Origin: a bacterium
Lineage (GTDB): Bacteria > Patescibacteriota > Minisyncoccia > Phycocordibacterales > UBA5272
Assembly (NCBI GenBank): GCA_023267635.1
Contig: JAHFMX010000002.1
Location: 21,307-85,306, forward strand
Direction of reading: 5' to 3'
DNA length: 64,000 nucleotides
Below the pieces are notes generated by a model that did no database searches, was not told the DNA's origin, and saw nothing but the letters and a program-made list of their open reading frames with translations. Below, piece after piece: positions 4,736-32,158 of this stretch (position 1 is its first letter; the number at the start of each line of letters is the position of its first letter). The translations under genes and the position numbers were made by a program.

Positions 4736-4753
4736 TCTTGTATCGCAGAGATT

Positions 4754-5386: not shown

Positions 5387-5387
5387 A

Positions 5388-5425: not shown

Positions 5426-5432
5426 CTCTTAT

Positions 5433-6048: not shown

Positions 6049-8208
6049 TTACTCTACTTCTTTATCAGCAAATACCACTAATCGCTTGGAATAGCTTTTC
6101 TTAGATGGGTTCCAGACTCCATCACATGTAATGAGGTTAAGATGATTACCGTCATTAGATGTAAAAACCTCAGTGGCAACAGTATCTGGATCATACTGAC
6201 GGCTTTCCCGAACAACAAACGTGGTTATTACTCCTCTGTTATCTTCAACAAAAATTGAATCTCCTACGACTAGTTTATTCAAATCTTTAAACACTCCAGG
6301 CTTAATGACTTTTCCTCCACGAATCTGAGCAACGTGCCCAGAGATAACAGCATCACCGCGCTCACCAGGACGTTCACTCTCCTTAAACCACCCCACATCA
6401 GCAAGACCAGTAGGCCCCTCCATTTCTCCATCCAACTTACGTCCAGTATATTGAAACTTAGTATCGACTTTAATGGCTGGTATTTGTAGACGTACAGGGA
6501 ATCCGATATTTTTCGTATCCTTTTTTGTTTCTCCATGTACAACCATTCTGGTTGATTCTGTTGGGGTGCTTGACTGGCTATTGTTAACGGTTGAATCTCT
6601 CGTCTCAGGGGATTCATTCTTCTCTGTCGCCTGTAATGACGGAAGCATAGTTACATTAAACATATCTTCTGGTGCAGCATTAAAAATACTAACCACTCCC
6701 TGCCAAAGACTGCCAAACCAAGATATGATTCCCGTATTTGGTAATTTTGGAATTGTATCATTCTTCTTCGTATCATCATTCGTAATCGTACACGTTTTAT
6801 CATCACCCTTTTCTAAAACCACCTTACCATTTTCATCACAATCTCCGCCAAATGTTGCAGTGTACCCTCCAGAAAGGTCTTCGCTTACTTTGTATGTGCC
6901 TGAAGAAAGAGTGTACAAAGTTCCAGGCGCTTCAACCCCAACCGCAGGACTGCCTGCAACATCAGTCGTTTTAAAAAATGAAGAACTTTTAACGTGCATA
7001 GTAAAAAGATACGCTGTGGCAGTTCCTCCGTTGTCGTTTATGACATGTTTTATAATACGAAGTGTTGATGATGTAGCAGATGGCGTCGGAGTAGTTGTGG
7101 TCGAAGTATCATTGGGAGTGACAATTTTTCCAACGTCATCATTCGTAATCGTACACGTTTTATCATCACCCTTTTCTAAAACCACCTTACCATTTTCATC
7201 ACAATCTCCGCCAAATGTTGCAGTGTACCCTAGGAACACATCTTCACTCACAACATAGACAGCTGGTTTAAGAACATACGAAGTACCTGGGGCTTCGGCG
7301 CCAGCTGCTGGGCTTCCAACAACGTCCGCAATACCCATTCCAGTAGAACCTTTAACATGCAAAGTAAAGGAAGAGGCTGTGGTAGTGCCACCGTTGTCAT
7401 TAACAACATGCTTCACAACGTGAAGAGTTGAAGTCAAAGGAGGTGGAGGTACATCTGGCACAGAACACGTTGGTGCTGTTATAGTCACATATTTCATAAT
7501 GCCTGGATTTGTTTTAACTGCCCAATCATAAGCCAGAGCTCTACCAACCCACTTGGTACCGCCACCAACGGTAATATCAAAGTTTACAGGACCTATTGGT
7601 TGAATAACTGTTCCGATAAACTTCGTATCCGAACCGAGAGTAGTATAAGCAGAAGCTGGCGGTGCCAACTTTGGTGTCCAAAAAACATCGCAGGCAGATG
7701 CTCCGTTTTTAGCCGTAACAACCGATAGATTAGAGGTAGTTAGTGTCCCAGATGGGCGAAAGATAAAAGTTCCAACCCCATCAAGCTCAATCGTTTTACC
7801 ACCACCTATACTCATATTTCCGGGAGAGCAATATACTCCAGGTGTATAAACACCGAGGGCGCCGTGCGAAATATCAGTGGCGAGATCAACGGCACCACTG
7901 AACGTAAAGGTACACGCCTGACTATTGAGTGCAGAAAGTGCAATATGCTGATCAGTTCCCGCCTGTAAGTAGGTCGCGTTATTCATATGCGTCGCTCCAC
8001 TTATATACGCAGGCTGTCCTCCAAATACTGTATACCCAACATCTCCAAAAAGAGAAGTGCCATTAGAAATGTTTGCATTTGTAAATGTATACGAAAGAAC
8101 ACTGAATGGGTCTGCTGCGCCCAGAGATGGCGTAGTTGCTGCTTGCGCAAAATTTGCAAAACTGAATAGAGAAACCAAAAAAAATGCAACTACAAAAATA
8201 TGTTTCAT
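6049..8208 (-). CDS. Secreted fusion protein: DUF3494 (ice-binding-like) domain + 2 tandem ~121-aa repeats + LPNTG motif + TM + C-terminal sortase domain
   Basis: 719 aa. Signal peptide MKHIFVVAFFLVSLFSFANFAQA. The N-terminal domain resembles DUF3494 (YTPGVY). Two repeats begin with HVVKHVVNDNGG. LPNTG is followed by IISWFGSLWQGVVSIF. The C-terminus has sortase motifs (SGHVAQ, LNLITC) and is homologous to the sortase at 14329-14901. Confidence 0.6.
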   Translation of the reverse strand: MKHIFVVAFFLVSLFSFANFAQAATTPSLGAADPFSVLSYTFTNANISNGTSLFGDVGYTVFGGQPAYISGATHMNNATYLQAGTDQHIALSALNSQACTFTFSGAVDLATDISHGALGVYTPGVYCSPGNMSIGGGKTIELDGVGTFIFRPSGTLTTSNLSVVTAKNGASACDVFWTPKLAPPASAYTTLGSDTKFIGTVIQPIGPVNFDITVGGGTKWVGRALAYDWAVKTNPGIMKYVTITAPTCSVPDVPPPPLTSTLHVVKHVVNDNGGTTTASSFTLHVKGSTGMGIADVVGSPAAGAEAPGTSYVLKPAVYVVSEDVFLGYTATFGGDCDENGKVVLEKGDDKTCTITNDDVGKIVTPNDTSTTTTPTPSATSSTLRIIKHVINDNGGTATAYLFTMHVKSSSFFKTTDVAGSPAVGVEAPGTLYTLSSGTYKVSEDLSGGYTATFGGDCDENGKVVLEKGDDKTCTITNDDTKKNDTIPKLPNTGIISWFGSLWQGVVSIFNAAPEDMFNVTMLPSLQATEKNESPETRDSTVNNSQSSTPTESTRMVVHGETKKDTKNIGFPVRLQIPAIKVDTKFQYTGRKLDGEMEGPTGLADVGWFKESERPGERGDAVISGHVAQIRGGKVIKPGVFKDLNKLVVGDSIFVEDNRGVITTFVVRESRQYDPDTVATEVFTSNDGNHLNLITCDGVWNPSKKSYSKRLVVFADKEVE
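6773..7230. repeat. Intragenic tandem repeat: two identical 95 bp cores (6773-6867 and 7136-7230) spaced 363 bp apart
   Basis: Identical DNA runs tcatcattcgtaatcgtacacg...cagtgtaccc. They encode the repeated GGDCDENGKVVLEKGDDKTCTITNDD segment. Confidence 0.8.
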
Positions 8209-13289: not shown

Positions 13290-14321
13290 ATGAAAAAATT
13301 TACTAAACATTCTCTCGTGCTCGGACTTGCTCTCTCCTCAACTATCAGCTTAACAGGATTGTCCCTTTTTGCAGCAGGCCCAACGCCAGTAAATCTTTTA
13401 TCAGCAACTAACTTCGCCATTCTTGCAGGTTCAACCATAACCAACACAGGGTCAAGTGTGATTAACGGAGACATGGGATTAAGTCCTGGCACCTCTATCA
13501 CAGGGTTTCCACCTGGAACCTTAAACGGAACGCAGCATATCAATGATGCTACGGTTATACAGGCACAGAATGATTTAGTTACAGCATTTAATGCTGCCAA
13601 CCAAACACCAGTTTCTGTAGTACCTGCAGAACTTGGAGGAACAACAAAAACAACAGGCACCTACGAATCCGTAGATGGCTCATTTGCGATAACAGGAACA
13701 CTTACTCTTGATGCACAAAATGATCCTGATGCTGTCTTTATATTTAAATCAGCTTCTACACTCACTACCGCCGGGGCAAGTTCCATTGTTCTTCTTAATG
13801 GCGCACAGGCCTGTAACGTCATCTGGCAAGTTGGAAGCTCTGCGACACTTGGAACAAATTCTATTTTCAAAGGTACCATTGTTTCTTTAACATCTACTAC
13901 GATTACCACAGGAGCAAATGTTGAAGGGCGAGTGCTTGCACGTAATGGAGCTGTTACCGTAGATTCAAGCACGGTTACAAAACCAGTATGTGTTGCCGCT
14001 GTACCACCAGTCGTTACTCCAGTAGTAGTAGCGACATCCACTGTTGCCACAACAACAACAGCTACCACAACTAGTCCAGTGGTGACCACTACAGCCACAA
14101 GTACCCCTATCGTATTTGCAACCACAACAGTTGTTTTCGTTCCTCCAACAATCACACCTACAATAACTAGCCCAACGTTCACCATTTCTCCACAATTCCC
14201 AAATGCAGGAATGTCTCCTGAAGAAACGTCTCGGTACTGGGGCATCCTCAGTCTCGTTGTATCGTTATTCTCAGCTTCACTAGTAATTACACACCTCCAA
14301 AAAAGACAGCTGCTTCGCTAA
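13290..14321 (+). CDS. Secreted DUF3494 (ice-binding-like) protein with Thr/Val/Pro-rich stalk and C-terminal sorting signal (FPNAG + TM + KRQLLR)
   Basis: Signal peptide. DUF3494 signatures NFAILAGSTITNTG and GDMGLSPGTSITGF. C-terminal hydrophobic segment with a basic tail. A sortase gene lies immediately downstream. Confidence 0.6.
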   Translation: MKKFTKHSLVLGLALSSTISLTGLSLFAAGPTPVNLLSATNFAILAGSTITNTGSSVINGDMGLSPGTSITGFPPGTLNGTQHINDATVIQAQNDLVTAFNAANQTPVSVVPAELGGTTKTTGTYESVDGSFAITGTLTLDAQNDPDAVFIFKSASTLTTAGASSIVLLNGAQACNVIWQVGSSATLGTNSIFKGTIVSLTSTTITTGANVEGRVLARNGAVTVDSSTVTKPVCVAAVPPVVTPVVVATSTVATTTTATTTSPVVTTTATSTPIVFATTTVVFVPPTITPTITSPTFTISPQFPNAGMSPEETSRYWGILSLVVSLFSASLVITHLQKRQLLR

Positions 14322-16945: not shown

Positions 16946-17188
16946 ATGAATCACGTTTATTTTATTAAAAGTGAAATCAAGAATGATTGGATTTACGTTG
17001 GCTCTACTTCCAACCTGGAAAAACGACTAGAGCAACATAATAAAGGTGAAGTAAAATCAACAAAAGGACATAGACCTTTTACACTGATTTATACTGAAAC
17101 CTTTCTAACGATTGACGAAGCAAGAGCGCGAGAAAAGGAAATAAAGATGAAGAGAATTGAAAAAGAACGTATAATTAGATCACTTTAA
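16946..17188 (+). CDS. GIY-YIG nuclease family protein
   Basis: 80 aa. HVYFIKSEIKNDWIYVGSTSNLEKRLEQHNKG matches the GIY-YIG core (YIG, R, E, N). Confidence 0.7.
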   Translation: MNHVYFIKSEIKNDWIYVGSTSNLEKRLEQHNKGEVKSTKGHRPFTLIYTETFLTIDEARAREKEIKMKRIEKERIIRSL

Positions 17189-17195: not shown

Positions 17196-17267
17196 GGCCC
17201 TATCGTCTATCGGTTAGGACGTATCCTTCTCAAGGATAAAAGCAGAGTTCGACTCTCTGTAGGGTCA
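17196..17267 (+). tRNA. tRNA-Glu (anticodon CUC)
   Basis: GGCCCTA-TC-GTC..TATCC-TTCTCAA-GGATA..CAGAGTTCGACTCTCTG-TAGGGTC-A. The cloverleaf folds cleanly. Confidence 0.75.
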
Positions 17268-17303
17268 CCTTCAACAGCTAGCACGAGAAGGGTGCTAGAA
17301 AGT

Positions 17304-17333: not shown

Positions 17334-17445
17334 CTATGCTTTTTTACCTTGACTTTTTACTGCTTTTATGCTATTATTAAGTAGTCACAATCCGTGGCAC
17401 AATTGTTTCGGCAATGTAAACCGAGTTGAACTTTTACAATGGAGA

Positions 17446-18399
17446 GCTAACATCATGACGATGCTTACTCAGCAAGAAAACGCAACCGAAGGTCAGCAAG
17501 AGCAAATCACCCGTGTTGCTGTCGACGCTGTCCGCAAGGCAGTAGCCGAATACTTCACGAAGCGGACACTGACGAAGGATGGTGCTCAAGCACTTCACGC
17601 AAACGGCAACAACATCGTTGCTGGCCTGCGTGACAAGGTCTTCGCCATGTACGACGAGATCACGGTCACCGACAAGTTCGCAGACGAAGAAATCAGCTCG
17701 AGCTACGTGTACCCGAAAGAGTACCGTGGTGTGAAGCCGATCGGCGCGCAGGTGGACATCTTGGCACAGGCTTTCGGTCTGTCACTCGGTTACACGAGCA
17801 ACTGGATCGAAAAGGTCTTGCCGACCTTGACGCTCCCCGAAGGAGCAGAAGGCTGGTTTGCCATCCCCTCGGTTGAAGCGATCGCAAAACGCCACTTCCC
17901 CGAAGTGACGGATCCTGTGGATCGCTATTGCCGTGCTGTCGAGCTCATCCTCGAAAAGCTCGGCAAGTCACGGTCGTTCTACAACTATCGTGAAGGCGAA
18001 ATCACGCCCCGTCAACTGCGTCAGCACGCACGGACCATCCACGCTCTCGACATCATCGTCGAACAGCAGAAGGGTGACATCCTGATCGTGCCTGCTCAGT
18101 TTGGAATGGGTCACCGTGGTCGCTCCGTTCGCCGTGCTCGTGAATGCTTCAAGGCAAACGAGTTCGGTCTCGGCGCTCTCGCTGTCGGCTCCATGGTGCT
18201 TACCCATCCCGAACGCTTCGTTCGTTGGGAACAGCTCCACACCGACTGCGCAGGTGACGAGTTCGCTCCGGGTGCGGTTGGCGAGTTCTGGGGCGCCCCG
18301 ATCTTCAGCTTCAGTGACGGCAAGCTCGAGTTCGGCACCGACGATGTGTCGTATGCGTGCGGCTACTGCGGTTCCGCCTCGGGGTTTCTTCCGCTGTGA
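17446..18399 (+). CDS. DGR target (variable) protein; C-terminal ~44 aa encoded by the VR; high-GC foreign-looking gene
   Basis: RBS GGAGAG before the ATG at 17446. GC is about 58% against about 38% locally. The 3' end is homologous to the TR with adenine-specific mismatches. Confidence 0.7.
   Translation, partial: ANIMTMLTQQENATEGQQEQITRVAVDAVRKAVAEYFTKRTLTKDGAQALHANGNNIVAGLRDKVFAMYDEITVTDKFADEEISSSYVYPKEYRGVKPIGAQVDILAQAFGLSLGYTSNWIEKVLPTLTLPEGAEGWFAIPSVEAIAKRHFPEVTDPVDRYCRAVELILEKLGKSRSFYNYREGEITPRQLRQHARTIHALDIIVEQQKGDILIVPAQFGMGHRGRSVRRARECFKANEFGLGALAVGSMVLTHPERFVRWEQLHTDCAGDEFAPGAVGEFWGAPIFSFSDGKLEFGTDDVSYACGYCGSASGFLPL
18262..18393 (+). repeat. DGR variable repeat (VR)
   Basis: 132 bp aligned to the TR. 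Every mismatch falls at a TR adenine (e.g. TR AAC against VR GGC/AGC/GAC/TGC/TAC). The shared 3' GC-rich end is ctacggttccgcctcggggtttcttccg. Confidence 0.8.
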
Positions 18400-18454
18400 T
18401 CCTTGGATCTTGGGGACTTGATTCTTTTGTTCCCTTGATTCTTGAATCCTTGAA

Positions 18455-18484
18455 CGGCTCGCTTGCGAGCCGTTTTTCTTTTGG
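18455..18484 (+). terminator. Hairpin/terminator downstream of the VR
   Basis: gaacggctcgc-tt-gcgagccg followed by ttttc. Confidence 0.5.
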
Positions 18485-18762
18485 CCGAAGGCCTCCGCAT
18501 ATTTTATATATTTGATATACTTATTAACGAGTCTAGGTTAGTGTATAGTAGTTCACGGATTGCTATCACCGAACTCTTTCTCCTATGAGAAATCACAATC
18601 AGATTTATAGTGATTACGGTTACTATAACAGTGTTGTTGCTCTAGAGATACTGCTTACTACTCTTCAAGACAAATGAGTAATCATGTTGTCAGATAAAAT
18701 ACAGAATCATGATTCATGTGCAATATCATGTTTCGTGGTTTGTGACATAGATGGAAAGTAGT

Positions 18763-18894
18763 AAAACTCCGGATGCGGATGGCAAGTTCTGGAACGCCCC
18801 GATCTTCAACTTCAATGACGACAAGCTCAAGTTCAACACCAACGATGTGTCGAATGCGAACGACAACTACGGTTCCGCCTCGGGGTTTCTTCCG
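18763..18894 (+). repeat. DGR template repeat (TR)
   Basis: Adenine-rich counterpart of the VR (aaaactccggatgcggatggcaagttctggaacgcc...). An incidental in-frame 54-codon ORF (18751-18915) overlaps it. Confidence 0.8.
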
Positions 18895-18913
18895 AAGTAT
18901 CGATTAGCAAAGT

Positions 18914-18943
18914 AAAAGGTATCCTGTTTAGGATACCTTTTAA
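18914..18943. terminator. Bidirectional terminator between TR and avd
   Basis: aaaaggtatcc-tgttt-aggatacctttt. Confidence 0.5.
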
Positions 18944-18944
18944 C

Positions 18945-19295
18945 TTACTTAGACATACTTGATTTTATCCACCCACCAAGCATTCGACCAATCTCATCAA
19001 TTATTCCTTGAAGTAAAGTATATTTCTTCATATCAAGACTTTTATTTTCTTTCATAAGACGAATAAAAAATCTTAATATATTAAGTCTTATGCTTGCCCT
19101 CTCAAGTAGATTATTCTTCTTTTCTTTGTAAGAATAGCTCGCTTCCAAAATAAGTTCTAAGATTTCGATGATTATATTTTCTGATCGTTCATATATCGAA
19201 AACCTTTCGTGTTTTGGGACTAATAATCTATATTCGTGGAATAGTTTATAGAGTTCGTGAATCTTTCTAAGTATAGGTACATCATTATCATTCAT
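18945..19295 (-). CDS. avd: DGR accessory variability determinant (Avd)-like four-helix-bundle protein
   Basis: 116 aa. Avd-like ..LYKLFHEY...ERFSIYERSENIIIEILELILEASYS...IRLNILRFFIRLMKE..IDEIGRMLGGWIK. Confidence 0.65.
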   Translation of the reverse strand: MNDNDVPILRKIHELYKLFHEYRLLVPKHERFSIYERSENIIIEILELILEASYSYKEKKNNLLERASIRLNILRFFIRLMKENKSLDMKKYTLLQGIIDEIGRMLGGWIKSSMSK

Positions 19296-20348
19296 ATGCG
19301 AGTTTTTACTAATCTATTTTCTAATTTGGTTAATATAGAAAACCTGTTTTTTGCATGGGAAGGGTTTAAAAAAGACAAGAAGAAAAAAGAAGATATTTTA
19401 GAGTTTGAGAAAATTATGGAAACTGAGATCTTTAAACTTCATAGAGAACTAATATCTTACACCTATCGACATAGTGGGTATATTGGATTTTATATATCTG
19501 ATCCAAAACGAAGACATATACATAAAGCAATTGTTCGAGATCGTATTTTACATCATGCAGTCATGAATATTCTTTATCCCCTTTACGATAAGATTTTTAT
19601 TCATAACTCTTTTTCTTGTCGAGTGGGCAAAGGTACACATAAAGGTGTTGATGCTATGAGATCCATGCTTTTAAAAGCAAGTAATAACAATACGAAAAAT
19701 GTATTTATTTTGAAGTGCGATATACAGAAGTTTTTTGATTCAGTTGATCATAATATCTTAATTCGTATTCTTCGTGAAAGAATTAAAGACGAAAAACTTA
19801 TGAATCTTCTTATTGAGGTGATCGACAGTTTTGATGGTAGTCAATCGAATCTTTTTGAAAGAAAAGGTCTTCCAATTGGCAATCTTACTTCTCAACTCTT
19901 TGCAAATGTTTACATGGACAAATTTGATCAATATGTGAAGCATGTACTTAAAGTTAAATACTATGCTCGATATACAGACGATTTTGTTGTAATTAGTGAT
20001 AATAAAGATTACTTATTATCACTAATTACAACCATTTCACTTTTTCTGAGTCATGAGTTAAAGCTCACGATACATCCTAAAAAGATTGAGATCCGTAAAT
20101 ATTCTCAAGGTATTGATTTTCTTGGTTATGTGGTTTTCCCTTATCATACGCAGGTTCGCAAGAGAACACTAAGGAGAGTAAGGAGAAAGTTGGATATTAA
20201 GGTGAAGTTATACAGAGCAGATAAGATTGATAAAACAAAACTGGACGCCACTCTTATGTCATATTTAGGGGTTCTTTCTCACGCAAACACTTACAGGTTT
20301 TCTGAGCAGATAAAAAATGAATACTTTTTATCTGCTAACGGTAATTAG
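19296..20348 (+). CDS. DGR-type reverse transcriptase
   Basis: N-terminal ENLFFAWEGFKKDKKKK. Motif 4 LPIGNLTSQLFANVYMD is the DGR hallmark I/LGxxxSQ. YTDDFVV matches YxDD. The start is taken at 19296; an alternative ATG lies at 19257. Confidence 0.85.
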   Translation: MRVFTNLFSNLVNIENLFFAWEGFKKDKKKKEDILEFEKIMETEIFKLHRELISYTYRHSGYIGFYISDPKRRHIHKAIVRDRILHHAVMNILYPLYDKIFIHNSFSCRVGKGTHKGVDAMRSMLLKASNNNTKNVFILKCDIQKFFDSVDHNILIRILRERIKDEKLMNLLIEVIDSFDGSQSNLFERKGLPIGNLTSQLFANVYMDKFDQYVKHVLKVKYYARYTDDFVVISDNKDYLLSLITTISLFLSHELKLTIHPKKIEIRKYSQGIDFLGYVVFPYHTQVRKRTLRRVRRKLDIKVKLYRADKIDKTKLDATLMSYLGVLSHANTYRFSEQIKNEYFLSANGN

Positions 20349-20391
20349 ATAATGAATACATATAATTTGATTACTATATTTTCTAGTTACT

Positions 20392-22695
20392 CTATAACCT
20401 TTCAGAAAGTGAATCCCACCCATGAAAAGATTGAGAATATGAATATGTTTTGTTACTATTTATTTTCCACCCATTAGGACCATCCTGTACTGCAATGCCA
20501 CCAGTAAAACCTTTTTTTCCTTTTAACCATTCTTGCAGTGCTTCCGCTTTATATTTTGTATCATTGATTTCCGCAGTCGTTCCTTTTTTGGTATCTATGA
20601 TTAATATATTATTTTTTGTTTGTATTATCCAGTCAGGATAAAATAATTTCTCTCTGTTTTCATCTTTGTTGTAATATGAAATTGAAAAATATTCACTACC
20701 TGAGTCTCCGTTTTTATACCACCATAAGACATTTTTATGTTCTTCTAAAAACTTAATAAAATCTTTTTCATTATCTTCTCCTTTATATTCTTTTTCAATA
20801 TAAAATGGACTCATGGCACTTTTCTTCACTTTCATCTCTTCATATTGATCAGTAAAGAATAATGTATCTCGTGGTATTTGTATTGTCTCGATACGCTTAG
20901 CACGCTCAGACTTCTTGTTTACTTCAAGTTCACGAATTGGTCTATATTTTTCTAATGCTTTTCCAATAATAGGTGACAATATACTTGATGTCTTAATAAA
21001 ATCATTAACGATAACCCTATATGCATTTTGTCTACTAATACTTAATGACTCCATAAACCAAACATTAAGGGCAGTTTTTAATTTACCCCAAGAACGCTCA
21101 GGTGCAAACTTCTTATTTTCATCAATCTGTTTTGAAATTAGACTGAAACAATAAAGATTATAAAGTTTTTCTAAATCATTTTGAGAGATTTCCTGATCAT
21201 GACTACTTCCTTCGGAAAGCAACTCCTCTTTAAAGTTATCATAATCGTCAATTTCAACACCAACAATAAGACCATTTGTCACAGATGGGTTAGTATCAAG
21301 ATTCTTTTGTAATAATTTTTTAGAAATTGTAGATGTATTGTCTTTTTCTTTGATATCAAAATACTCGTTTGCTATTTCCTTAAATGTATTTTGGAAACTG
21401 TCACCTAAGTCGTTATAATCCGACCTGCTCATAAAAACAGATTCAAGATCAATTGGTGTAATTTCAGATTTTCTGTGACTTGGAAATATCGCAGGGCGAT
21501 TACCTCCTGGTGTCTTTGCATAACCAGTTAAAACTTCATTTCTTTTGTAATTTGTATAGAGATACCCAAGATTAAGTTCAGGTTTCGCAAAATGTGTCCC
21601 TAGTGGCATACGCAAAATTCTTCCAACTGTTTGAATTGCAAAAGTTGGATTCTTAATCTCACGAAACATTACAAGAACACTTGCTCGTGGACAGTCCCAA
21701 CCTGTTGCGGCGGCTTGTTTGAATAACAAAAACGAAACAGGTGAAGTATTATTGGTGATATCTTCAAGATTTACTTTGTCTTCTGATAACCAAATAGCAA
21801 TTTCATGATCAAATACACCTTTTTCTTTTAGAGAGTTAATAATAAAATCTTGTTTAGTGCTACCACTTGTAGTTTTGTCTGCTTTATCGTCATTAGGAAG
21901 TTGAATTAGAACAAGAGGATTGATTTCTATATTTAACTCCTTGTAAAGGGATATAATTTCATTTCTTTTGTTAAAAGCAAGAGAAACAAGTATTTCATCT
22001 TGATCTACACCTTTATAGTCTCGTGATTCGAGATCTTCTTCTGTTTGAAATATTATTTTTTCTTTTATAAGACCCGCACTTATAACCACTTCACGATTTA
22101 CTTCTACTGTTGCAAAACCTGTATTTTGAGGAGTAGCAGAAACACCTATAATAATTCTAGGTTTAATAACATTATTAATTAAGTCGCTTGCTAGAATAGT
22201 AGATGAAGCAATATGTTCCTCATCGATAATAAGTATTACCTCTCGTTTAACATTGTGAGTATTATTAAGATACTCATCAAAGGTTGTATTTGATTCTCCT
22301 TCAGTTCTTAACTTTCTATTGTCTTTTGCTTTAGAAACTAATTTTTGCCAATTAATAAAAAATATTCCATTTCTAGGAATTACCCCGTCTCTCAAATTAT
22401 TCATATCAATAATAGGGTTTTCACTTGCTCCTCCATAGTACGCAAATAGTTTTTCTTTCGATTGCATTGCCAAAGAGTCAGAGTTAGTAATCCAAACAAA
22501 GCCAACATCAGCATGAGAAAATCTTGGGTCAGATACAATGTCCCGCAAGAACTGAGCCATCATTATTGTTTTACCTGATCCTGTTGGAGATTTGAAAGTT
22601 AGATTGATATTGTGATCACCAAGTTTCCAAAGAGTTAAAAATTTTTCTTTTAACTGGGATATTGCGGTCTCTTGAAATGGTTTAAGTGTAAACAT
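20392..22695 (-). CDS. res: Type III restriction enzyme Res subunit (helicase-nuclease)
   Basis: 767 aa. Walker A KSPTGSGKT, DEEH box IIDEEH, VSATPQN motif III. It is directly downstream of mod. Confidence 0.8.
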   Translation of the reverse strand: MFTLKPFQETAISQLKEKFLTLWKLGDHNINLTFKSPTGSGKTIMMAQFLRDIVSDPRFSHADVGFVWITNSDSLAMQSKEKLFAYYGGASENPIIDMNNLRDGVIPRNGIFFINWQKLVSKAKDNRKLRTEGESNTTFDEYLNNTHNVKREVILIIDEEHIASSTILASDLINNVIKPRIIIGVSATPQNTGFATVEVNREVVISAGLIKEKIIFQTEEDLESRDYKGVDQDEILVSLAFNKRNEIISLYKELNIEINPLVLIQLPNDDKADKTTSGSTKQDFIINSLKEKGVFDHEIAIWLSEDKVNLEDITNNTSPVSFLLFKQAAATGWDCPRASVLVMFREIKNPTFAIQTVGRILRMPLGTHFAKPELNLGYLYTNYKRNEVLTGYAKTPGGNRPAIFPSHRKSEITPIDLESVFMSRSDYNDLGDSFQNTFKEIANEYFDIKEKDNTSTISKKLLQKNLDTNPSVTNGLIVGVEIDDYDNFKEELLSEGSSHDQEISQNDLEKLYNLYCFSLISKQIDENKKFAPERSWGKLKTALNVWFMESLSISRQNAYRVIVNDFIKTSSILSPIIGKALEKYRPIRELEVNKKSERAKRIETIQIPRDTLFFTDQYEEMKVKKSAMSPFYIEKEYKGEDNEKDFIKFLEEHKNVLWWYKNGDSGSEYFSISYYNKDENREKLFYPDWIIQTKNNILIIDTKKGTTAEINDTKYKAEALQEWLKGKKGFTGGIAVQDGPNGWKINSNKTYSYSQSFHGWDSLSERL

Positions 22696-22699
22696 ATAA

Positions 22700-24406
22700 T
22701 TATAGTCGATTAATTTCTTTATAAACTTCTAGTATTGGTTCAGGAATATCCTCAATCCTTATATGTTTAGTGCTATATTCATTTCGGTATTCGTTTTTAC
22801 CCCAACCAAAAATATACAAAACTATCTGAAGTTTCTTTTTCTCAAGTAATGTAATTAGTTCCTTTAGTTTCTCTTTGTTTTCTTTGAAGTAAATTGCAGT
22901 AACTTTATTGTCACCCTCAAAAATCTGCCACCATTCTGTTTTCTCAATTTCGTTTAAAGTATTTTCTTTAACGGCTATCATTTCACCAGCTTGATAAGTT
23001 ACTTTAATTTTTGCTTCATCAGATATTTTGTGTAACTTTTCAATATCTACAAGATCAGTTTTGTAATATGACAAATTACCATTAAGCCCTTCAATTTTTT
23101 CTTCCTTCTTATTCTTATACCCCTTAATTACTCGTTTAATTCTTTCATAAGTAACCTCTTCACAAATTTTATTTTCATTATTAGTACAAAGAATAAATTT
23201 ACGATTACCACCATCTTGCTTATTAAGTTCAAGAACTGCATGACCTGTTGTTCCTGATCCTGCGAAGAAATCAAGAACGGTCGAATTTTTATCTGATGTT
23301 ATTTTTAATGCATCTTGTACAGCATAAACAGACTTAGGAAAACTAAAACTATTTTTATCTAAAATTTTATCCAATAATTGTGTACCATACCTCGTAGCAT
23401 TATATTTAGGTTTTATCCAATGTGTTTTAATAATCTGCTGTTCTCTATATTTTCTATAGATAGTAGGTTTGTTATTTTCAACTAAGATGACCACATCACC
23501 ATTTTTAAGATTTTCTTCAAAAGTATCCTTACTAGTATTCCATGTTCTCTCTTGCCCGCTTTCGGTTATTGGTAATACTTCTACATATCCATTTTTCTTA
23601 TCTAAACTTATATCTTTTGTTTTAAGGTCTACATAAATTGGATACCAACCATTTGGCTTATTTATTTTTAAACTAACATCCCCACCACCTCTTCTAAGAT
23701 ATTCCTCTAGTCTATACTTACCAATATCGTCCACTAAATTAAACTTTTCTGCATCATCTTCGTCAAGGGGTATATTTTTAATTTTTCCAACTAAATCATT
23801 TTTTGAATAAAATAAATAGTATTCATTGGTTGGATTAATAGATTTTGAGAATTGGCGACCTTCTGGTTTATGTACAACCGTAACAACTCCAGTTCTGTTA
23901 TTTTCTCCAAATATTTCATCACACAATGTACCTAAATAAAATAATTCATAATGGTCAATTGCTATTATTATAAAACCTTTCTCTGATAAGAGGTTTCTTG
24001 CAAGTATCAACCTATTTTCCATGAAAGATATCCATTTACTATGTCTCCACTGATCATTTGAGTCTACATAATCATTATTATATCTCCAATCACTAGACCC
24101 AGTATTGTATGGTGGATCAATGTAAATGACATCAATCTTACCTTTGTGTGTATAATTCAAAACAGAAAGAGTGTGGTAGTTATCTCCTTCAATGAGTAAA
24201 TTATTTAAATTACTTTCACCATCTATAATCTTCTTACTTTTAACTTCTTTAAGTACTGGAATATTTTCTTTACAAGAAAAAACAACATCCTCTGGTTTTC
24301 TTTCCCAGACAAGTCCAAACTTTTTTCTAGATTTAAGATTATTATTCTCAACCTCTAATTCTTTAATACGAGCTGTTAACTCTTGTTGTGTTTTATATTG
24401 AGACAT
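22700..24406 (-). CDS. mod: Type III restriction-modification DNA methyltransferase Mod subunit (N6-adenine/N4-cytosine class)
   Basis: 568 aa. Motif IV IDPPYNT, motif I FDFFAGSGTTGHA, and an N-terminal coiled coil. Confidence 0.85.
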   Translation of the reverse strand: MSQYKTQQELTARIKELEVENNNLKSRKKFGLVWERKPEDVVFSCKENIPVLKEVKSKKIIDGESNLNNLLIEGDNYHTLSVLNYTHKGKIDVIYIDPPYNTGSSDWRYNNDYVDSNDQWRHSKWISFMENRLILARNLLSEKGFIIIAIDHYELFYLGTLCDEIFGENNRTGVVTVVHKPEGRQFSKSINPTNEYYLFYSKNDLVGKIKNIPLDEDDAEKFNLVDDIGKYRLEEYLRRGGGDVSLKINKPNGWYPIYVDLKTKDISLDKKNGYVEVLPITESGQERTWNTSKDTFEENLKNGDVVILVENNKPTIYRKYREQQIIKTHWIKPKYNATRYGTQLLDKILDKNSFSFPKSVYAVQDALKITSDKNSTVLDFFAGSGTTGHAVLELNKQDGGNRKFILCTNNENKICEEVTYERIKRVIKGYKNKKEEKIEGLNGNLSYYKTDLVDIEKLHKISDEAKIKVTYQAGEMIAVKENTLNEIEKTEWWQIFEGDNKVTAIYFKENKEKLKELITLLEKKKLQIVLYIFGWGKNEYRNEYSTKHIRIEDIPEPILEVYKEINRL

Positions 24407-24429
24407 AGGGTAGACATCTATGTATCGGC

Positions 24430-24582
24430 TATAACATTAAAAATGGGTAGCCGAGTGTCTACCCATAGGTTGGAGTCGCGAGGAGTCCAATCATGGAACT
24501 CAGCTACCCGTTTTTACCCACGATTGGTAAAACGAAGTAGCCTCGCGACTCTATTATCAAAAGAGAAACCTATGGGTAGACT
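24430..24582. repeat. Large imperfect palindrome with nested inverted repeats between mod and the recombinase
   Basis: gtctacccatagg (24457-24469) pairs with cctatgggtagac (24568-24580), and ggagtcgcgagg pairs with cctcgcgactc. Additional arms are present. Confidence 0.5.
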
Positions 24583-24621
24583 GTATGATTATATCACTTA
24601 ATTAATAATTTTTATAGGTCA

Positions 24622-25941
24622 TCACAAAATAGTAATGACCTTATTTTTAAGTGTAATTTTAGAGTTTAAACATCTTAAGAATTCTCTCTTTTCTTCTATG
24701 TCTCCTTCAACCAAAATAAACTTCGCATAGTTTCTTATATCAATATCTTTTACTGTAACTTGGGCTTTTGTGCCTAAAAGTGTCTGTTGAAATAACTTAA
24801 ATCTTTTAACTTCACTAGCGATCTTTTCTCTCATGGGTACTGTTTTAATATCAATATCGTCCATTAGGTTTTTTAATTGTTCAAGCAAATCTTCCTCGTT
24901 AATAAACCCACAAGTACAATTCTGGTCTCTGGTTTTTGTACACTTATAATAAACATATCTATGAACATTTCCATTTTGTTGATGTTTGAATTTCTCGTCT
25001 GCTGTTATACCTGACCCACAAAGTCCGCAAGTCATGATTTTAGTAAAAGCAAATTCTTTTTGTCCTGATTTTGGTTGTAAAGTTTGACTCTTTACATTCT
25101 CTTGAACTAAATCAAAGAGTTCTTTTGTGATAATTGGTTTATGTGATCCGTTATACCATTTCCCAGATTTAGCAGGAAATTCAAACCGACCATAATATAT
25201 AGGATTTTGGAGGAGCCTATAAAAGTTTCCTAAACTTAGATGTATTCCATACTCCGATTTAAAATCAATATCATATCTAAGCCAGTGCCAAACTTTCTTT
25301 CCAGACCAGCCATCGTAAGCAATCTTTTCAAACATTTGCTTAATGAAAGGTGCACGATCTTGATCAATAACTAATTCACATTTTTGATCCATTCTTTTAA
25401 ATTTTGTATATCCTGTCGGTGGGCGACATGGCCATAACCCCATCTCTACTCTTGCTCTTAGTCCACGCTTTACATTGATACTCTTGTTATCATTTTCAAG
25501 TTTTGCTTGAGAACATAAAATCATCAATAAAAATTTTTCGTTAGGAGAGTTAGAAAAAGTTTGTCCATATGTCTGTATATGAATTAATTTTCGTTGATCC
25601 ATCAAATCAACAAGCGACCCGAGGTCGCCTGCATTTCTACTTAATCTATCTGGCGCCCATGTCAGCACACCGTTAAATTTTCCTTGATCTATTTCTTGTA
25701 ATAATTGTTTATATACTGGTCGTTGACCTGAAGCTTTAGCACTATGTGATTCTCGTTTTACTTCTACCACATACAATCCTAAACGCTCTGCTATCGCACT
25801 CATTTCTTTAATTTGTGAATCAATCGACAATGCTTGCATTTCATCTGACTCAGTTGATTTTCTAGCATATAGACAATATTTAACTCTTATTGGTGAAATT
25901 GTTATATTGCTTTCAATTCGTCCAATTGTGTTTGTTTCCAT
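24622..25941 (-). CDS. Large serine recombinase (phage-type integrase/resolvase)
   Basis: N-terminal YARKSTESDEMQALSIDSQ catalytic motif. Recombinase domain, then a zinc ribbon (CGLCGSG...YYKCTK) and a C-terminal coiled coil. Confidence 0.8.
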   Translation of the reverse strand: METNTIGRIESNITISPIRVKYCLYARKSTESDEMQALSIDSQIKEMSAIAERLGLYVVEVKRESHSAKASGQRPVYKQLLQEIDQGKFNGVLTWAPDRLSRNAGDLGSLVDLMDQRKLIHIQTYGQTFSNSPNEKFLLMILCSQAKLENDNKSINVKRGLRARVEMGLWPCRPPTGYTKFKRMDQKCELVIDQDRAPFIKQMFEKIAYDGWSGKKVWHWLRYDIDFKSEYGIHLSLGNFYRLLQNPIYYGRFEFPAKSGKWYNGSHKPIITKELFDLVQENVKSQTLQPKSGQKEFAFTKIMTCGLCGSGITADEKFKHQQNGNVHRYVYYKCTKTRDQNCTCGFINEEDLLEQLKNLMDDIDIKTVPMREKIASEVKRFKLFQQTLLGTKAQVTVKDIDIRNYAKFILVEGDIEEKREFLRCLNSKITLKNKVITIL

Positions 25942-26082
25942 ATTATATTAATGACAGAAATCACTAGTTTTGCTAAGTCTATGCAAGACTTAAAAAGCGT
26001 CGCATTGTGATACTTGAAACTCGTAGCAAAATAAAGGTTTTAATGTATCACAATATTTTAGAAATTGAACTGTTGATATCTT

Positions 26083-27585
26083 TTAGTCAACATCTACATA
26101 ATCTGAATGACGAATTATATCGTCATTACTTGTTCCAGGGCCAATCCAAGCAATAAGTATAGTTCCTTCGTTTGAGTGTTTTTCGAGTGTTGCGTTAACA
26201 AGTAGAGAAAAAGCATCCGCCAAGTCATCATGTTTTTCTACACCAAAGCCAACTAATTCTCTAATTAAATCTTCACACCCTTGTCGTGGAAACTTAATAA
26301 TTCCTGACTTAATAGAGGTAGAAGTAAGTGCTAGTCTTGTTCTTTTATCACCCTTTGGTTTTATTGCTTCTGCTTGAATTCCTTGCATTTGTAACATTTG
26401 TGGTAATGCTTCTTGATATGCAACACTTTCAACGAATAACTTATCAGTACTCTTTGGCATTTGAGTAATCTTGATGTTTTTCATGAGTTCAACTTGTGCG
26501 GGAAAGTTTAGTTTCTTGGTTATAGGATTAGGTAAGATATAGATTCGTAATTTATCTCTTCTTCCGTATATACGAGCCATAACAACAGCAGTAAAGTCGG
26601 CTGAATCACTTGCAGATATTGCAAGATCAACACCCGCATAAGTTCCACGATATGCCTTATGTGTAGCAGGAGGTAATTCATCGTAAAACTTTAACCACTC
26701 TGGGTAAATAACTTGGTCATCACTTGGAATAATACGAAGTAAGTATTCTCGTTGCCATGATACCTCACTAGCAACTTTTAGTTTCTCTTCCTCGATAGCT
26801 TCTTTATTTGGATATTTACCTGACCACAAACATATATCGTTTTCATCAAGTAATGGATACTGTTTGAATGTTCCTTTTGCCTTTCCATCCTTAATTTCTT
26901 CTTTTATTCTCATAAGTAGAGAATCTTCATGAAGTAAGTTACCTATAAGAATAAGTCGTGTATTTCTGTCTCCTGTAGGAATTACTTCACCGCGTAGCCA
27001 GTTATATGTTTTGTTTCTTCCTTCTCTTGTTTTAGCAGATTGCACATCTTCCACATCGTCGCAGATTATAAGATCAGGTCTATGTTCATTATGACGAATA
27101 CCACGAATACTTTGTTCAGTAGAAGCAACACTAATTCTTGCTCCATGTTTTTTAAATACCAATGAATATGATCCCCACTCGTCAGATTCCTCTTGGAAAG
27201 GACCGAGGTCTTTCTTGAGAAGATCATTATTCTCTAACTCTTGTTTAATGTTCATCATGTGCTGTTTCGCTTGTGCTCTTGTGTGACAGAAAATTACACA
27301 AAACTTTTTCTGTTGTTTTCCAAGTATCGCCCATATCGGATAAGCAGTTGTCGCCATCGTTGATTTACCTGATCCACGAAAAGCAACGACATATAAGTTT
27401 TCGTTATTACCTTTCTCTAGGAGGTGGATTATCTCTTTCTGGAAATCAGCCGTTTCGTACTTTACATAGTGAGCATAATAGAAATGAAAGAAGTAGAAAA
27501 AACTATCTTTAGTAATGGTGGTTCTAACCAATCTATCTTTCATCATTTTGTTTAGTAATGATTTATCAATGTTGTTATTTTTCAT
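26083..27585 (-). CDS. terL: Phage terminase large subunit
   Basis: 500 aa. Walker A AFRGSGKST, Walker B-like LIICDDVED, and a C-terminal RNaseH-like nuclease region. Confidence 0.75.
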   Translation of the reverse strand: MKNNNIDKSLLNKMMKDRLVRTTITKDSFFYFFHFYYAHYVKYETADFQKEIIHLLEKGNNENLYVVAFRGSGKSTMATTAYPIWAILGKQQKKFCVIFCHTRAQAKQHMMNIKQELENNDLLKKDLGPFQEESDEWGSYSLVFKKHGARISVASTEQSIRGIRHNEHRPDLIICDDVEDVQSAKTREGRNKTYNWLRGEVIPTGDRNTRLILIGNLLHEDSLLMRIKEEIKDGKAKGTFKQYPLLDENDICLWSGKYPNKEAIEEEKLKVASEVSWQREYLLRIIPSDDQVIYPEWLKFYDELPPATHKAYRGTYAGVDLAISASDSADFTAVVMARIYGRRDKLRIYILPNPITKKLNFPAQVELMKNIKITQMPKSTDKLFVESVAYQEALPQMLQMQGIQAEAIKPKGDKRTRLALTSTSIKSGIIKFPRQGCEDLIRELVGFGVEKHDDLADAFSLLVNATLEKHSNEGTILIAWIGPGTSNDDIIRHSDYVDVD

Positions 27586-27590
27586 ATTTG

Positions 27591-27992
27591 TTATTTATTA
27601 ATTTTTCTAATAGACTTTTGTTTTGTAATTGAAGCCAGTTTAAGAGCGTGTCTTACCACTTTTGCTTGAGACGGTGAAAGTGCTTCGTTGTCTTCTTTTG
27701 TCGTTATTTCAATCCTGTCTTTGTAGTTATCATTTCTATGACGCAACCAAAAAGAGATAGCCGAGTAGTTCTTCTCTTTGATCAGAGTAAGTAACTGTGA
27801 TTCACTCATGTCATTAACAAAAGCCACCCCACTTGTAAGTGCTTCATCCATTTTCTTCTCAAATGTTTTATCTTCCTTTCTCCAACGATAGACAGAGTTG
27901 CGAGATAGCCCTGTCTTCTCACATGCAACCTGTACTATCGGCACTTTTGTAAGCTCTTCTAAAAATTGATCTTGTATCTTATTCTTTTTCAT
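27591..27992 (-). CDS. Terminase small subunit-like HTH protein
   Basis: 133 aa. N-terminal HTH (VACEKTGLSRNSVYRWRKE). It is immediately upstream of terL. Confidence 0.45.
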   Translation of the reverse strand: MKKNKIQDQFLEELTKVPIVQVACEKTGLSRNSVYRWRKEDKTFEKKMDEALTSGVAFVNDMSESQLLTLIKEKNYSAISFWLRHRNDNYKDRIEITTKEDNEALSPSQAKVVRHALKLASITKQKSIRKINK

Positions 27993-29259
27993 AGAAGTTT
28001 TTGATTATCTCTGCTTTATTGCCAGTCAGTTTTTCGTAACGACGAATTGCCAAATCACAAAATACAGGTTCAATTTCTAGTGAGTACACCCTGCGACCAA
28101 GTTGTTCTGCACAGATCATAGTGCTTGCAGATCCTGAAAAGGCGTCAAAAATAATGTCACCTGGTTTAGTACAGCGCATAATGAATTTATGATGTAATTC
28201 TGGATTCTTACTTGTAGGGTGTTCCATCTGATTTGATGGAAGTCGCTTGGTTGCCCAGAGGTTTGATATTTCTTCAAGTAACTGGTTACCTGTACTTAAA
28301 TCTTTGTTCTGTATCTCGTTAAGATTTTTAACTAAATCAGATAAGTATGGTGACCCTTTACTTCCATAAACACAAAACTCTGTACACTTGTTAAATGCAA
28401 CAGCTGGGGTCGGTGATGAGTTGTTTTTAACCCAAACATTGAGTCTTCTATTCTTAATACCCAGTTCTATGTATAGCGTTTGAAAAACCCATACCCACGC
28501 TTCATCGCACCAGAATGCTACATGCAGGTCTTCTATAGATACAGCAAGAGCAGAATTCAAGACTTGTCGAATAAATTCCACATATTCTTTTGGTGATTGA
28601 TTGTCATCAAAGGTTCCTCCATAATTGCGAGTATTTCCTACACCTTTATCATACGAAAGCCCAATATTAAATGGCGGGTCACTGTAGATAGAGGTCGCTT
28701 TATGTTCACCGAATAGTTTTTGCACTGCATGTATGTTTGTTGAACTAGCACAGAGTAATTTGTGATCACCCATAATTATGAGATCACCCTTTTGCACAAC
28801 AGGGGTTTTTATTTTCTTTAATTCTTGATCTACATTGAACTTATCGTCTTTAGTGTCTCTATCTTCATCCCAAAACTTCGCAATTTCCATATCAGAAAAT
28901 CCTGCAAACTTTATGAGATCAAGATTAAATGATCTCAACTTTTCAAAATCCCACTCACCATCATTTACATTGCTTTCGAGTGCAATCTTGGTACGCTCAT
29001 CATCTGTGAGCGCACGATCTGGAATAAGAACAGACACTTCCTTAATTGCTAATTGAGTGAGTGCTGTTTTTCTTTGATTACCTGACAAAATTGTATTGTC
29101 GGTATCAACAACAATCACACTATGAAAACCACTTTGAATGATTTTATCTTTTAACTTCTCAAGTGCAACCTTTGTTATTTTCCGTGGGTTTTCTTTCCAA
29201 GGAATAAGATCTTTGACTTCTCGATTTTCTACACGCCATTGAATTTTTTGCATAAGCAT
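27979..29259 (-). CDS. ParB-like nuclease domain fused to DNA N6/N4 methyltransferase
   Basis: N-terminal ParB/Srx fold. Motif IV SDPPFNIG and motif I FDAFSGSASTMICAEQLGRRVYSLE. Confidence 0.75.
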   Translation of the reverse strand: MLMQKIQWRVENREVKDLIPWKENPRKITKVALEKLKDKIIQSGFHSVIVVDTDNTILSGNQRKTALTQLAIKEVSVLIPDRALTDDERTKIALESNVNDGEWDFEKLRSFNLDLIKFAGFSDMEIAKFWDEDRDTKDDKFNVDQELKKIKTPVVQKGDLIIMGDHKLLCASSTNIHAVQKLFGEHKATSIYSDPPFNIGLSYDKGVGNTRNYGGTFDDNQSPKEYVEFIRQVLNSALAVSIEDLHVAFWCDEAWVWVFQTLYIELGIKNRRLNVWVKNNSSPTPAVAFNKCTEFCVYGSKGSPYLSDLVKNLNEIQNKDLSTGNQLLEEISNLWATKRLPSNQMEHPTSKNPELHHKFIMRCTKPGDIIFDAFSGSASTMICAEQLGRRVYSLEIEPVFCDLAIRRYEKLTGNKAEIIKNFYEKE

Positions 29260-29421
29260 TTTATTTAATTAATTTCTAAATAAAATGTATGAAATAGAAA
29301 ATGCCTATTTCACACACGAAATAACAGAAGTCTAAAAAACTTCAATTATCTCTTGCGCGAAATAGGCACGGTCTAGGACGGTACACTATTCAACTTTTTA
29401 CTACGCATGAATAAACTATTG

Positions 29422-29823
29422 TCAGTTACCCTTTTTCATGCCACGAGTTAACCTGCCACCATTTTTACCTTGTAGAAAATGAGTTAGATCATCACCCGCA
29501 TAAATAGGAATACCTCCTTTTGGTAATTGGATTATTACTTTTTCTCCTGCTTTTTCATATTCACCAATAAGTGACATCAACTTTGAGTCACTAGGTAGAG
29601 GTATTTGAAAAGCAACAGTGTTACCTACTGGAGGGGAAACTGTTTTGATAGAAGAGTAAATTCTACCTGGTTTACCAAATCTAAAAGCATTCCTTATTTT
29701 TTCACCAATAGAAAGCGTAGGCTTTTTATTAGAAAGATGTAACTTTATATCGGTTAATTCAATAACTCTATACTTCATACCATCACGCATTTCTGTTGGT
29801 TTTACATTAATTTGGTAATCCAT
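29422..29823 (-). CDS. Hypothetical protein
   Basis: 133 aa with no recognisable motif. It sits between the ParB-methyltransferase gene and the divergent repressor. Confidence 0.3.
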   Translation of the reverse strand: MDYQINVKPTEMRDGMKYRVIELTDIKLHLSNKKPTLSIGEKIRNAFRFGKPGRIYSSIKTVSPPVGNTVAFQIPLPSDSKLMSLIGEYEKAGEKVIIQLPKGGIPIYAGDDLTHFLQGKNGGRLTRGMKKGN

Positions 29824-29911
29824 ACTTATATTATTCCATGGGTGGTGTATAATGTCAAACGATTGTTGATAGTAACTTGCTTTTCTAATTACACTTTACT
29901 ATAATAGTAAA

Positions 29912-30550
29912 ATGCATTTAATTCAAAAACAACTAATAGACCTAATAGCGACTAATCCAAATTTCGGAAAGCTAAGCTTAAGATCAATAGCGAAAGAAGT
30001 AGGTGCTGAAGGCAAGCCACAGACCGCTAAGTACCATTTACAAGAACTGGAAAAAGCTGGGTTTATTCAAATGAATCTAAAAGAAGGAATAATTAAACTA
30101 GTTAAAAAAGGTACAAATATATCTAGTAAAAGCCCTATCTTTTCAATACCAGTAGTAGGGTCTGCTAATTGTGGTTTACCAACAATATTTGCTGAACAGA
30201 ATATAGAAAACTTTTTAAAAGTTTCTTCCAGTATGTTACCAAAAAAGAAAAGTGGCTTATTTGCACTAATTGCAGACGGCGACAGTATGAATATGTGTAA
30301 CATAAACGGTAAGAGTATAGAAAGTGGAGATTTTGTACTAGTAGATAGTGAAGATAGGGTTTACAAAGATAAAGACATTGTAGTAGCTGTCGTTGATGGT
30401 TTAGCAACAATAAAAGAGCTTCATAGAGACCTAAAGAACAACAGAATAGTCTTAAAAGCTCTTTCAACTAAAAAGTATCTACCTATTTATCTAGGTGAGG
30501 ATGATGATTTTATCATAAATGGTAAAGTCGTGGGTATTATTAAAAGTTAA
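29912..30550 (+). CDS. CI/LexA-like repressor (HTH + S24 peptidase domain)
   Basis: N-terminal HTH (LRSIAKEVGAEGKPQTAKYHLQELEKAGFI). C-terminal GDSM serine and a downstream Lys (ATIKEL). It is divergent from the upstream gene. Confidence 0.7.
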   Translation: MHLIQKQLIDLIATNPNFGKLSLRSIAKEVGAEGKPQTAKYHLQELEKAGFIQMNLKEGIIKLVKKGTNISSKSPIFSIPVVGSANCGLPTIFAEQNIENFLKVSSSMLPKKKSGLFALIADGDSMNMCNINGKSIESGDFVLVDSEDRVYKDKDIVVAVVDGLATIKELHRDLKNNRIVLKALSTKKYLPIYLGEDDDFIINGKVVGIIKS

Positions 30551-30566
30551 TTAAATAAAAAATATT

Positions 30567-30977: not shown

Positions 30978-30979
30978 CC

Positions 30980-31921: not shown

Positions 31922-31927
31922 CTTAAC

Positions 31928-32158
31928 ATGTTCGACGATAGAAGAAACAATGGAATATTAGGATTCGTTGAGTCCATGTTTAATTTTATTGGATGGCTTT
32001 TGTATATCTTGATTTGGGTTCCAATTAGTTGGATTTTTAGTTTACTTGGTCATTTTATTAAAGATGTGGCAACTGGTGTTTACGGAAAAATCGTTCAATT
32101 GACAGTAGTTTTTGTCTTCGGTTTGTTGGTTTACTTCTTCCAAACACATCTTAAATAG
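31928..32158 (+). CDS. Small 2-TM membrane protein
   Basis: 76 aa with two hydrophobic helices. Its start is 7 nt after the caspase-like gene stop. Confidence 0.35.
   Translation: MFDDRRNNGILGFVESMFNFIGWLLYILIWVPISWIFSLLGHFIKDVATGVYGKIVQLTVVFVFGLLVYFFQTHLK

Follow-up and report, generated by a model that had tools for sequence, protein, structure and literature searches.

A very probable diversity-generating retroelement with a conserved structured RNA 5' of its template repeat in a patescibacterial genome

Introduction

When the 3' end of a bacterial gene recurs as a near copy beside a reverse transcriptase (RT) gene, does the locus form a diversity-generating retroelement (DGR), and from what RNA would such an element work? 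We addressed this question for a locus in positions 21,307 to 85,306 of contig JAHFMX010000002.1 (GenBank assembly GCA_023267635.1), a stretch of 64,000 nucleotides from a bacterium of the Patescibacteriota (Minisyncoccia; Phycocordibacterales; UBA5272). This whole stretch is referred to below as the window, and coordinates are those of the window. An initial annotation, made from the sequence alone, had described a complete DGR that diversifies the C-terminal ~44 residues of a target protein. Our analysis agrees with this description, on the grounds of repeats that diverge only at adenines, an Avd equivalog and an RT resembling that of a Bordetella phage. The best explanation of 17349-20348 is a complete 3.0-kb cassette of the type found in the candidate phyla radiation (CPR), in the order target gene, template repeat (TR), avd (reversed) and RT gene, and we consider it very probable that this cassette acts by the mechanism proposed below.

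As a DGR the element is ordinary, since hundreds of the CPR type have been catalogued. Its value lies in the structured RNA, the repeat array and the GC signal that comparison with related loci exposed. To our knowledge, only in one phage is it known what DGR reverse transcription requires of its RNA. An RNA of another topology, supported by covariation in dozens of genomes, offers an independent second case in which to tell essential RNA features from dispensable ones.

Results

An ungapped comparison (offset 501) and a repeat finder independently returned the same pair of repeats on the forward strand, which were 128 nt long and 86% identical: the variable repeat (VR) at 18266-18393 and the TR at 18767-18894. 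The position of the TR was also supported by comparison with the TRs of relatives. The VR encodes the final 44 codons of a target gene for a 314-aa protein. All 18 mismatches in the 128-nt core corresponded to an adenine in the TR (13 A>G and 5 A>T). Given 31 adenines among the 128 nt of the TR core, the hypergeometric chance that all 18 would fall on adenines is 5.4e-14. In the reading frame that the VR imposes, these 31 adenines were located at codon position 1 (13) and position 2 (18), and none at position 3. The gap between VR and TR was 369 nt, in line with the ~370 bp noted in the initial annotation. That annotation had drawn the repeats as 132-bp segments (18262-18393 and 18763-18894); the place was right, while the four extra positions at the edge (AAAA in the TR, TTCG in the VR) may lie outside the repeat. 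Its claim that mismatches are confined to TR adenines held for either length, with 18 of 18 in 128 nt and 22 of 22 in 132 nt.

Both copies end in an identical A-poor block of 28 nt, CTACGGTTCCGCCTCGGGGTTTCTTCCG, located at 18366-18393 in the VR and at 18867-18894 in the TR, which is the common GC-rich end block recognized previously. The initiation of mutagenic homing (IMH) site is a reasonable label for this block, which we regard as a candidate. No further copy of its last 24 nt was found within the window with up to 3 mismatches allowed, and no other VR for this TR was found within the window. The two copies part directly after the block, where CTGTGA follows the VR and AAGTAT follows the TR.

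The genes flanking the repeats had been described as an Avd-like protein and a DGR-type RT with IGNLTSQ and YTDD motifs, and hidden Markov model searches and alignments bore out both descriptions. The avd gene (18945-19295, reverse strand, 116 aa) matched the NCBIfam equivalog NF033474 DivGenRetAVD with 82.1 bits (cut-off 80) and Pfam bAvd (PF22296) with 65.3 bits (cut-off 40; E 8e-18); the protein gave no match among solved structures. Avd is the accessory protein of architecture B, the commonest DGR class. The RT (19296-20348, forward strand, 350 aa) contains both motifs and matched RVT_1, and the conserved cassette ends on the right with its gene. Among solved structures, chain 8ub7_A stood out clearly as its best relative (E 2.1e-41, residues 5-340), followed by the best group II RT (E 2.3e-17) and retron-type RTs (~4e-16), so that this chain surpassed the other solved relatives by 24 orders of magnitude. 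In the alignment with 8ub7_A, IGNLTSQLFANVY stood opposite IGSLTSQLFANVY, YTDD opposite YMDD, and, in motif 4, IGNLTSQ opposite IGSLTSQ. We take 8ub7_A to be the Bordetella phage RT (bRT), because the numbering of the chain agrees with residues Q187, D215 and D216 as given in the cryo-electron microscopy paper (Handa et al.). The glutamine of SQ and the aspartates of YxDD in the RT of the window fell at exactly these three residues, in an alignment that ran from end to end.

Grouping with group II intron or retron RTs, which the initial annotation had named as the contrary outcome, was not seen among the solved-structure matches. Likewise, the RT scored below the cut-offs of the group II intron maturase model TIGR04416 (140.8 bits, cut-off 300) and of the retron and defence models, namely retron St85 (57.8, cut-off 235), Drt3a (83, cut-off 200) and Drt2 (66, cut-off 390). 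Its best match in PADLOC was the generic RT model only, and Rfam gave no match to a group II intron RNA at the locus.

The layout of the cassette is conserved. We compared the best 80 loci of a genome scan that returned 198 species. An RT was present in 35 of the 80 loci, most of them with Avd as well, in the order target, TR, avd (reversed) and RT. The TR was located in ~30 RT-bearing loci, usually 450-600 nt downstream of the VR, with 10-22 mismatches at adenine sites and 0-2 elsewhere. In three loci, two tandem targets were served by one TR. DNA similarity between the window and its three closest relatives started at 17338-17349, which is the target promoter just past the terminator of tRNA-Glu, and in one of them (L086) it ran to 20343, with 77% identity over 3.0 kb and unrelated flanks. 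The common edges and the unrelated flanks suggest that the cassette is a discrete unit that landed in different places.

Comparison with the relatives also revealed that each VR follows its own TR. The TRs of the window and L086 differed at 17 sites, only one of which was an adenine. Both VRs nevertheless agreed with their own TR wherever the TR has no adenine; the mismatches, 18 and 19 respectively, were all at adenines. This identity with the cognate TR indicates that each VR was rewritten after the two cassettes diverged. Between the window and its closest relative (L085), the target protein outside the VR was 95.6% identical (nonsynonymous divergence, dN, 0.028), while the VR-encoded part was 50% identical (dN 0.32). 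These sequence comparisons suggest that the element is probably active.

Approximately 250 nt upstream of the TR were conserved with obvious compensatory changes in the ten loci with the closest RTs. This region corresponds to a structured RNA domain of 242 nt (18527-18768, forward strand), which consists of nine to ten helices and a purine-rich linker at 18645-18652. The sequence of the window itself folds as the domain model, and the strand of the RNA is fixed by the many G-U pairs. The covariance model of 18527-18768 identified the domain in 47 of the 80 loci, 35 of which combine it with an RT; three relatives (L084, L085 and L086) and one viral contig contain it too. Its place is constant: downstream of the target gene, on the same strand as the TR, and leading straight into it. 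In an alignment of 51 sequences, which was fitted to the covariance model and so favours the structure, although the margin is large, 93.2% of the paired cells were complementary versus 42-54% with the partners slid, 62 of the 74 pairs were changed on both sides, and none of 500 shuffles reached any of these measures. A search of Rfam with 18400-18960 returned no family, the RT-n motifs included, even at E values up to 10. The covariance model is a ready search tool for DGRs of this kind.

The 242-nt RNA appears to have a promoter and a terminator of its own, both predicted. An extended -10 promoter, TGATATACT, at 18513-18521 on the forward strand would start the TR-containing RNA near 18527, and it is conserved in the ten closest loci. 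A terminator-like stem-loop, AAAAGGTATCC / GGATACCTTTT, starts 20 nt past the TR and lies between the TR and the end of avd (18914-18941); in distant loci its stem shows covariation, with a run of T after it. This stem-loop resembles a two-way terminator and may match the Avd-binding stem-loop of the Bordetella phage RNA. The domain is probably part of a free-standing TR RNA delimited by the predicted promoter and terminator. The 3' tail of this RNA (18895-18913, forward strand) contains AGUAUC (18896-18901), which is complementary to GAUACU in the linker, and a duplex between them would enclose the TR. The complementarity of linker and tail was locus-specific, as none of 2000 permutations reached it. 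The simple GAUACU/AGUAUC pairing that we considered for this duplex held in the subgroup of the window only, and was replaced by a longer purine/pyrimidine duplex.

The sequence past the VR differs from that past the TR. Directly after the stop codon of the target gene, an array of about seven 8-nt (C/T)TTGA units (18400-18451, forward strand) follows the VR and is absent after the TR. Nearly every family member carries five to seven such units past the stop codon, at a spacing of 7-9 nt. Family-wide, CTTG occurred 3.0 times per 70 nt after VRs, versus 0.45 in shuffles and 0.16 after TRs. The array was also kept in target copies without a nearby DGR.

The target gene (17455-18399, forward strand) is preceded by a predicted promoter at 17349-17377 (TTGACT, a spacer of 17 nt and TATTAT, with TG before the -10 element; 10 of 12 consensus positions), where the conserved cassette has its left edge, and a predicted intrinsic terminator lies behind the gene at 18452-18485, both on the forward strand. 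The reading frame given earlier as 17446-18399 was correct, and its start is moved here to the ATG at 17455; the resulting 314-aa product is exactly equal to one database protein. No Pfam or NCBIfam domain was matched, and neither a membrane segment nor a hydrophobic N-terminus was found (top Kyte-Doolittle mean over 19 residues, 1.17), in agreement with the earlier statement that the protein has no signal peptide and no recognizable N-terminal domain. A profile search against solved structures gave no match, and Foldseek against the PDB returned nothing. The first 130 residues are helical and matched nothing, and the C-terminal half looks C-type-lectin-like, which tentatively places the family in the lectin fold. 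The protein is probably a lectin-like binding protein located in the cytoplasm. There are more than 2,500 close homologues, all of ~300 aa, and the named ones are from Patescibacteria. A profile search returned 1,931 cluster representatives at 50% identity, and 4 of 2.9 million viral contigs encoded the family. CPR DGR targets have so far been assigned to "unknown VR" classes without a fold; a family of ~1,900 clusters at 50% identity now has a tentative place in the lectin fold.

The base composition of the target gene is anomalous. In the window, its overall GC content was 0.58 and its GC content at third codon positions (GC3) was 0.68, compared with a GC3 of 0.20-0.35 in neighbouring genes and 0.26-0.27 in avd and the RT gene. 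Target GC3 exceeded that of neighbouring genes in 80 of 80 loci (mean 0.70 versus 0.43), while the GC3 of the RT was host-like (0.42). In 53 of 64 loci the target was the reading frame with the highest GC3, and the excess lay past the 99th percentile of the neighbours. It was even along the gene and affected both purine- and pyrimidine-ending codons. In one cassette pair, the synonymous divergence (dS) was 0.85 for the target and 2.8 for the RT, and it was saturated for avd. The signal is clean and shared by the whole family, and it calls for an explanation.

Three origins of the anomaly were considered and set aside. A chimera of a GC-rich resident target and an AT-rich incoming RT module is contradicted by L086, which shares the whole 3.0-kb cassette (17349-20343) with the same contrast (0.57 GC in the target, 0.36 in avd and RT). 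Stray adenine mutagenesis that depletes the target of adenines does not fit either, as A3 and T3 were both low, G- and C-ending codons were both preferred, and GC3 was uniform. Recent horizontal transfer is unlikely as the whole cause: the excess occurs in 80 of 80 loci and tracks the GC3 of the host (r 0.62), the GC3 of RT and Avd is host-like, and protein identities are only 50-60%.

Discussion

Our results are consistent with the following mechanism. An RNA of ~420 nt would be transcribed from its own promoter near 18513-18521 and would end at the stem-loop at 18914-18941. Its parts would be, from 5' to 3', the structured domain (242 nt), the TR (128 nt) and a short tail that pairs back onto the purine-rich linker. 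The RT-Avd complex would bind this RNA and reverse-transcribe the TR with random incorporation opposite its 31 adenines, and the resulting cDNA would then take the place of the VR, at the target gene's 3' end. The direction of this transfer may be set by the sequence past the A-poor block, which is the CTTGA array next to the VR and AAGTATC next to the TR. In this way, up to 23 codons could be recoded among the last 44 residues of the lectin-like target.

The element fits the known CPR type of DGR, namely the "B3" class and clade 2, where the B3 label is deduced from the text of Wu et al. In the accessible part of Wu et al. 2018 (PMC5758913), 90% of the members of the CPR set have the B3 architecture, and the VRs of CPR targets are mostly of unknown fold ("UVR" classes). 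The accessible part of Roux et al. 2021 (PMC8144416) describes a cellular DGR clade restricted to the CPR (clade 2), whose targets have no recognizable domains. As far as these parts go, the CPR sets share with the window the host group, the chromosomal location, an Avd-containing cassette, an order and orientation unlike those of the Bordetella type, and a short target without a recognizable or membrane domain; no feature of the element conflicts with membership. The host and location are reflected in the window itself, where named homologues came from Patescibacteria and from metagenome-assembled genomes of the Parcubacteria group, and where the cassette shares the stretch with genes for SecA, GyrB, tRNA synthetases and LepA.

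The DGR of Bordetella phage BPP-1 (mtd-avd-TR-brt) shares with the window adenine-specific mutagenesis, an RT of the same clade (IGxLTSQ, YxDD), a partner Avd, a VR at the C-terminus in what is, for the window, tentatively a lectin-type fold, a stem-loop close behind the TR and, as a prediction for the window, pairing across the TR flanks. In contrast to the window, where avd is reversed, all genes of BPP-1 are on one strand. The functional RNA of BPP-1 consists of ~20 nt of avd, the TR and a 140-nt 3' spacer that wraps the RT and primes the cDNA, whereas in the window the large structured part (242 nt) is 5' of the TR, and the stretch past the TR up to a terminator-like hairpin measures only about 50 nt. 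Moreover, the VR of the window is followed by 8-nt CTTGA units instead of a GC-rich hairpin. The cross-taxon survey in the work on the Bordetella phage RNA covered only 40 nt upstream. The Rfam RT-10 motif (Weinberg et al. 2017, PMC5737381), which is the RNA between TR and brt of BPP-1, is likewise a structured RNA beside a DGR template that is thought to serve reverse transcription; it lies on the other side of the TR than the domain of the window. Compared with the FGE-type variable proteins such as TvpA of Treponema denticola, the target of the window has no FGE-sulfatase or DUF1566 match in Pfam or among solved structures, has no lipoprotein or signal sequence, and begins with the unmatched helical region.

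For CPR DGRs of this lineage in general, we propose a rearranged template RNA of ~420 nt, whose 5' part would be a scaffold for protein binding and priming, closed by the linker-tail duplex, together with a CTTGA mark of the recipient. The GC3 excess of the target may arise from nucleotide-level constraint or from biased repair tied to its role as a DGR target. We give this broader proposal an even chance of being correct. The array is put forward as the recipient mark because it is the clearest difference between the flanks of VR and TR, and it is a candidate for the element at work when the cDNA locates its target, a step that is poorly understood. The accessible parts of PMC5758913 and PMC8144416 do not mention a structured RNA 5' of the TR, the array past the VR or the GC anomaly; more broadly, neither the rearranged RNA nor the array mark nor the GC3 link was found described in Rfam or in the DGR literature, as far as this was accessible.

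We weighed three rival explanations of the locus. An ordinary duplication of a gene 3' end with normal divergence, beside an unrelated RT of a group II intron, retron or defence system, could draw on the sub-threshold matches of the RT to group II, retron and Drt models. Those matches lie far under the cut-offs, and bRT is the best relative by the wide difference given above; the adenine-only mismatches (P 5.4e-14), their recurrence in ~30 independent loci and the Avd equivalog adjoining the RT also speak against it, so that we regard this explanation as extremely improbable. It is quite unlikely that the DGR is inactive and that the VR/TR pattern is a fossil of past homing. In favour of a fossil, remnants exist in the family: L084 is without avd and RT and has lost 12 TR adenines, and in several further loci the RNA domain stands without an RT, although several kb are available downstream of the target gene. 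In the window, moreover, the RT had no predicted promoter. Against it, the three genes of the window are intact with their catalytic motifs present, the TR keeps its 31 adenines, and VR and TR show zero non-adenine differences in 128 nt, while 16 non-adenine sites have changed in the TRs of relatives.

The remaining rival concerns the 242-nt region, which might be a separate small RNA, or a 3' untranslated region or regulatory element of the target, outside the DGR RNA. The domain does persist in loci without an RT, and its link to reverse transcription is based on sequence. Nevertheless, it lies on the TR strand and leads directly into the TR in every locus, a terminator and a conserved promoter stand between it and the target gene, and its linker matches the post-TR tail in a locus-specific manner. 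In addition, TR identity tracks the identity of RT and Avd (r about 0.65) and not that of the target (r 0.11). We therefore consider a role outside the DGR RNA unlikely.

Several points weigh against our preferred explanation, a complete cassette that acts through a free-standing template RNA. Present-day activity was deduced and not seen. The role of the 5' domain in reverse transcription is a proposal, as is the marking of the VR as recipient by the CTTGA array. The pair counts carry the bias of the fitted alignment, and the register of the linker-tail duplex is ambiguous, since one strand is purine-rich and the other pyrimidine-rich; a slide of -2 pairs equally well. Finally, no forward-strand promoter for the RT was predicted between 18945 and 19295, and the stem-loop at 18914-18941 may not terminate transcription fully.

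The start codons of avd and RT stand head to head (19295 and 19296), as they do in most related loci. Because these starts abut, the promoters would have to lie inside each other's coding sequence, or the RT would be read through from the TR RNA.

The family also includes loci that depart from the full cassette. At 3386-4961 of L084, a decayed cassette keeps the target, the RNA domain and the TR; avd and RT are missing, 12 TR adenines are lost, and a gene for RNase HII comes next. For seventeen family members (L010, L018, L076 and 14 others), at least 2 kb to each side contain neither the RNA domain nor an RT. These members show a diversified-looking C-terminus, the CTTGA array in most cases and the GC3 excess in all, and they may be served in trans or be former targets.

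The cassette lies between tRNA-Glu (17196-17269) and a low-GC island (19000-32000, GC 0.29-0.37). The island contains genes for type III restriction (20392-24406), a large serine recombinase (24622-25941), a terminase-like protein (26083-27585), a DNA methylase (27979-29259), a LexA-like S24 repressor (29912-30550) and a caspase-family protein (30980-31921). In 5-7 further loci, the DGR likewise has relatives of the terminase, LexA and methylase genes at its side, in the other orientation. At the island's far end, the repeat finder detected no repeat of tRNA-Glu that would mark an attachment site. Just upstream of tRNA-Glu, 16946-17188 is a small gene with a GIY-YIG nuclease domain. Farther upstream, a 152-aa frame at 5346-5804 has no Pfam match and unusual third positions (C3 0.37, A3 0.11, GC3 0.52); as it overlaps the frame at 4547-5386, it is possibly not a real gene. 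The genes at 13290-14321 and 6049-8208 encode proteins with ice-binding-like domains, one of them fused to a sortase domain, and together with nearby sortase-type genes they suggest a cluster of cell-surface proteins.

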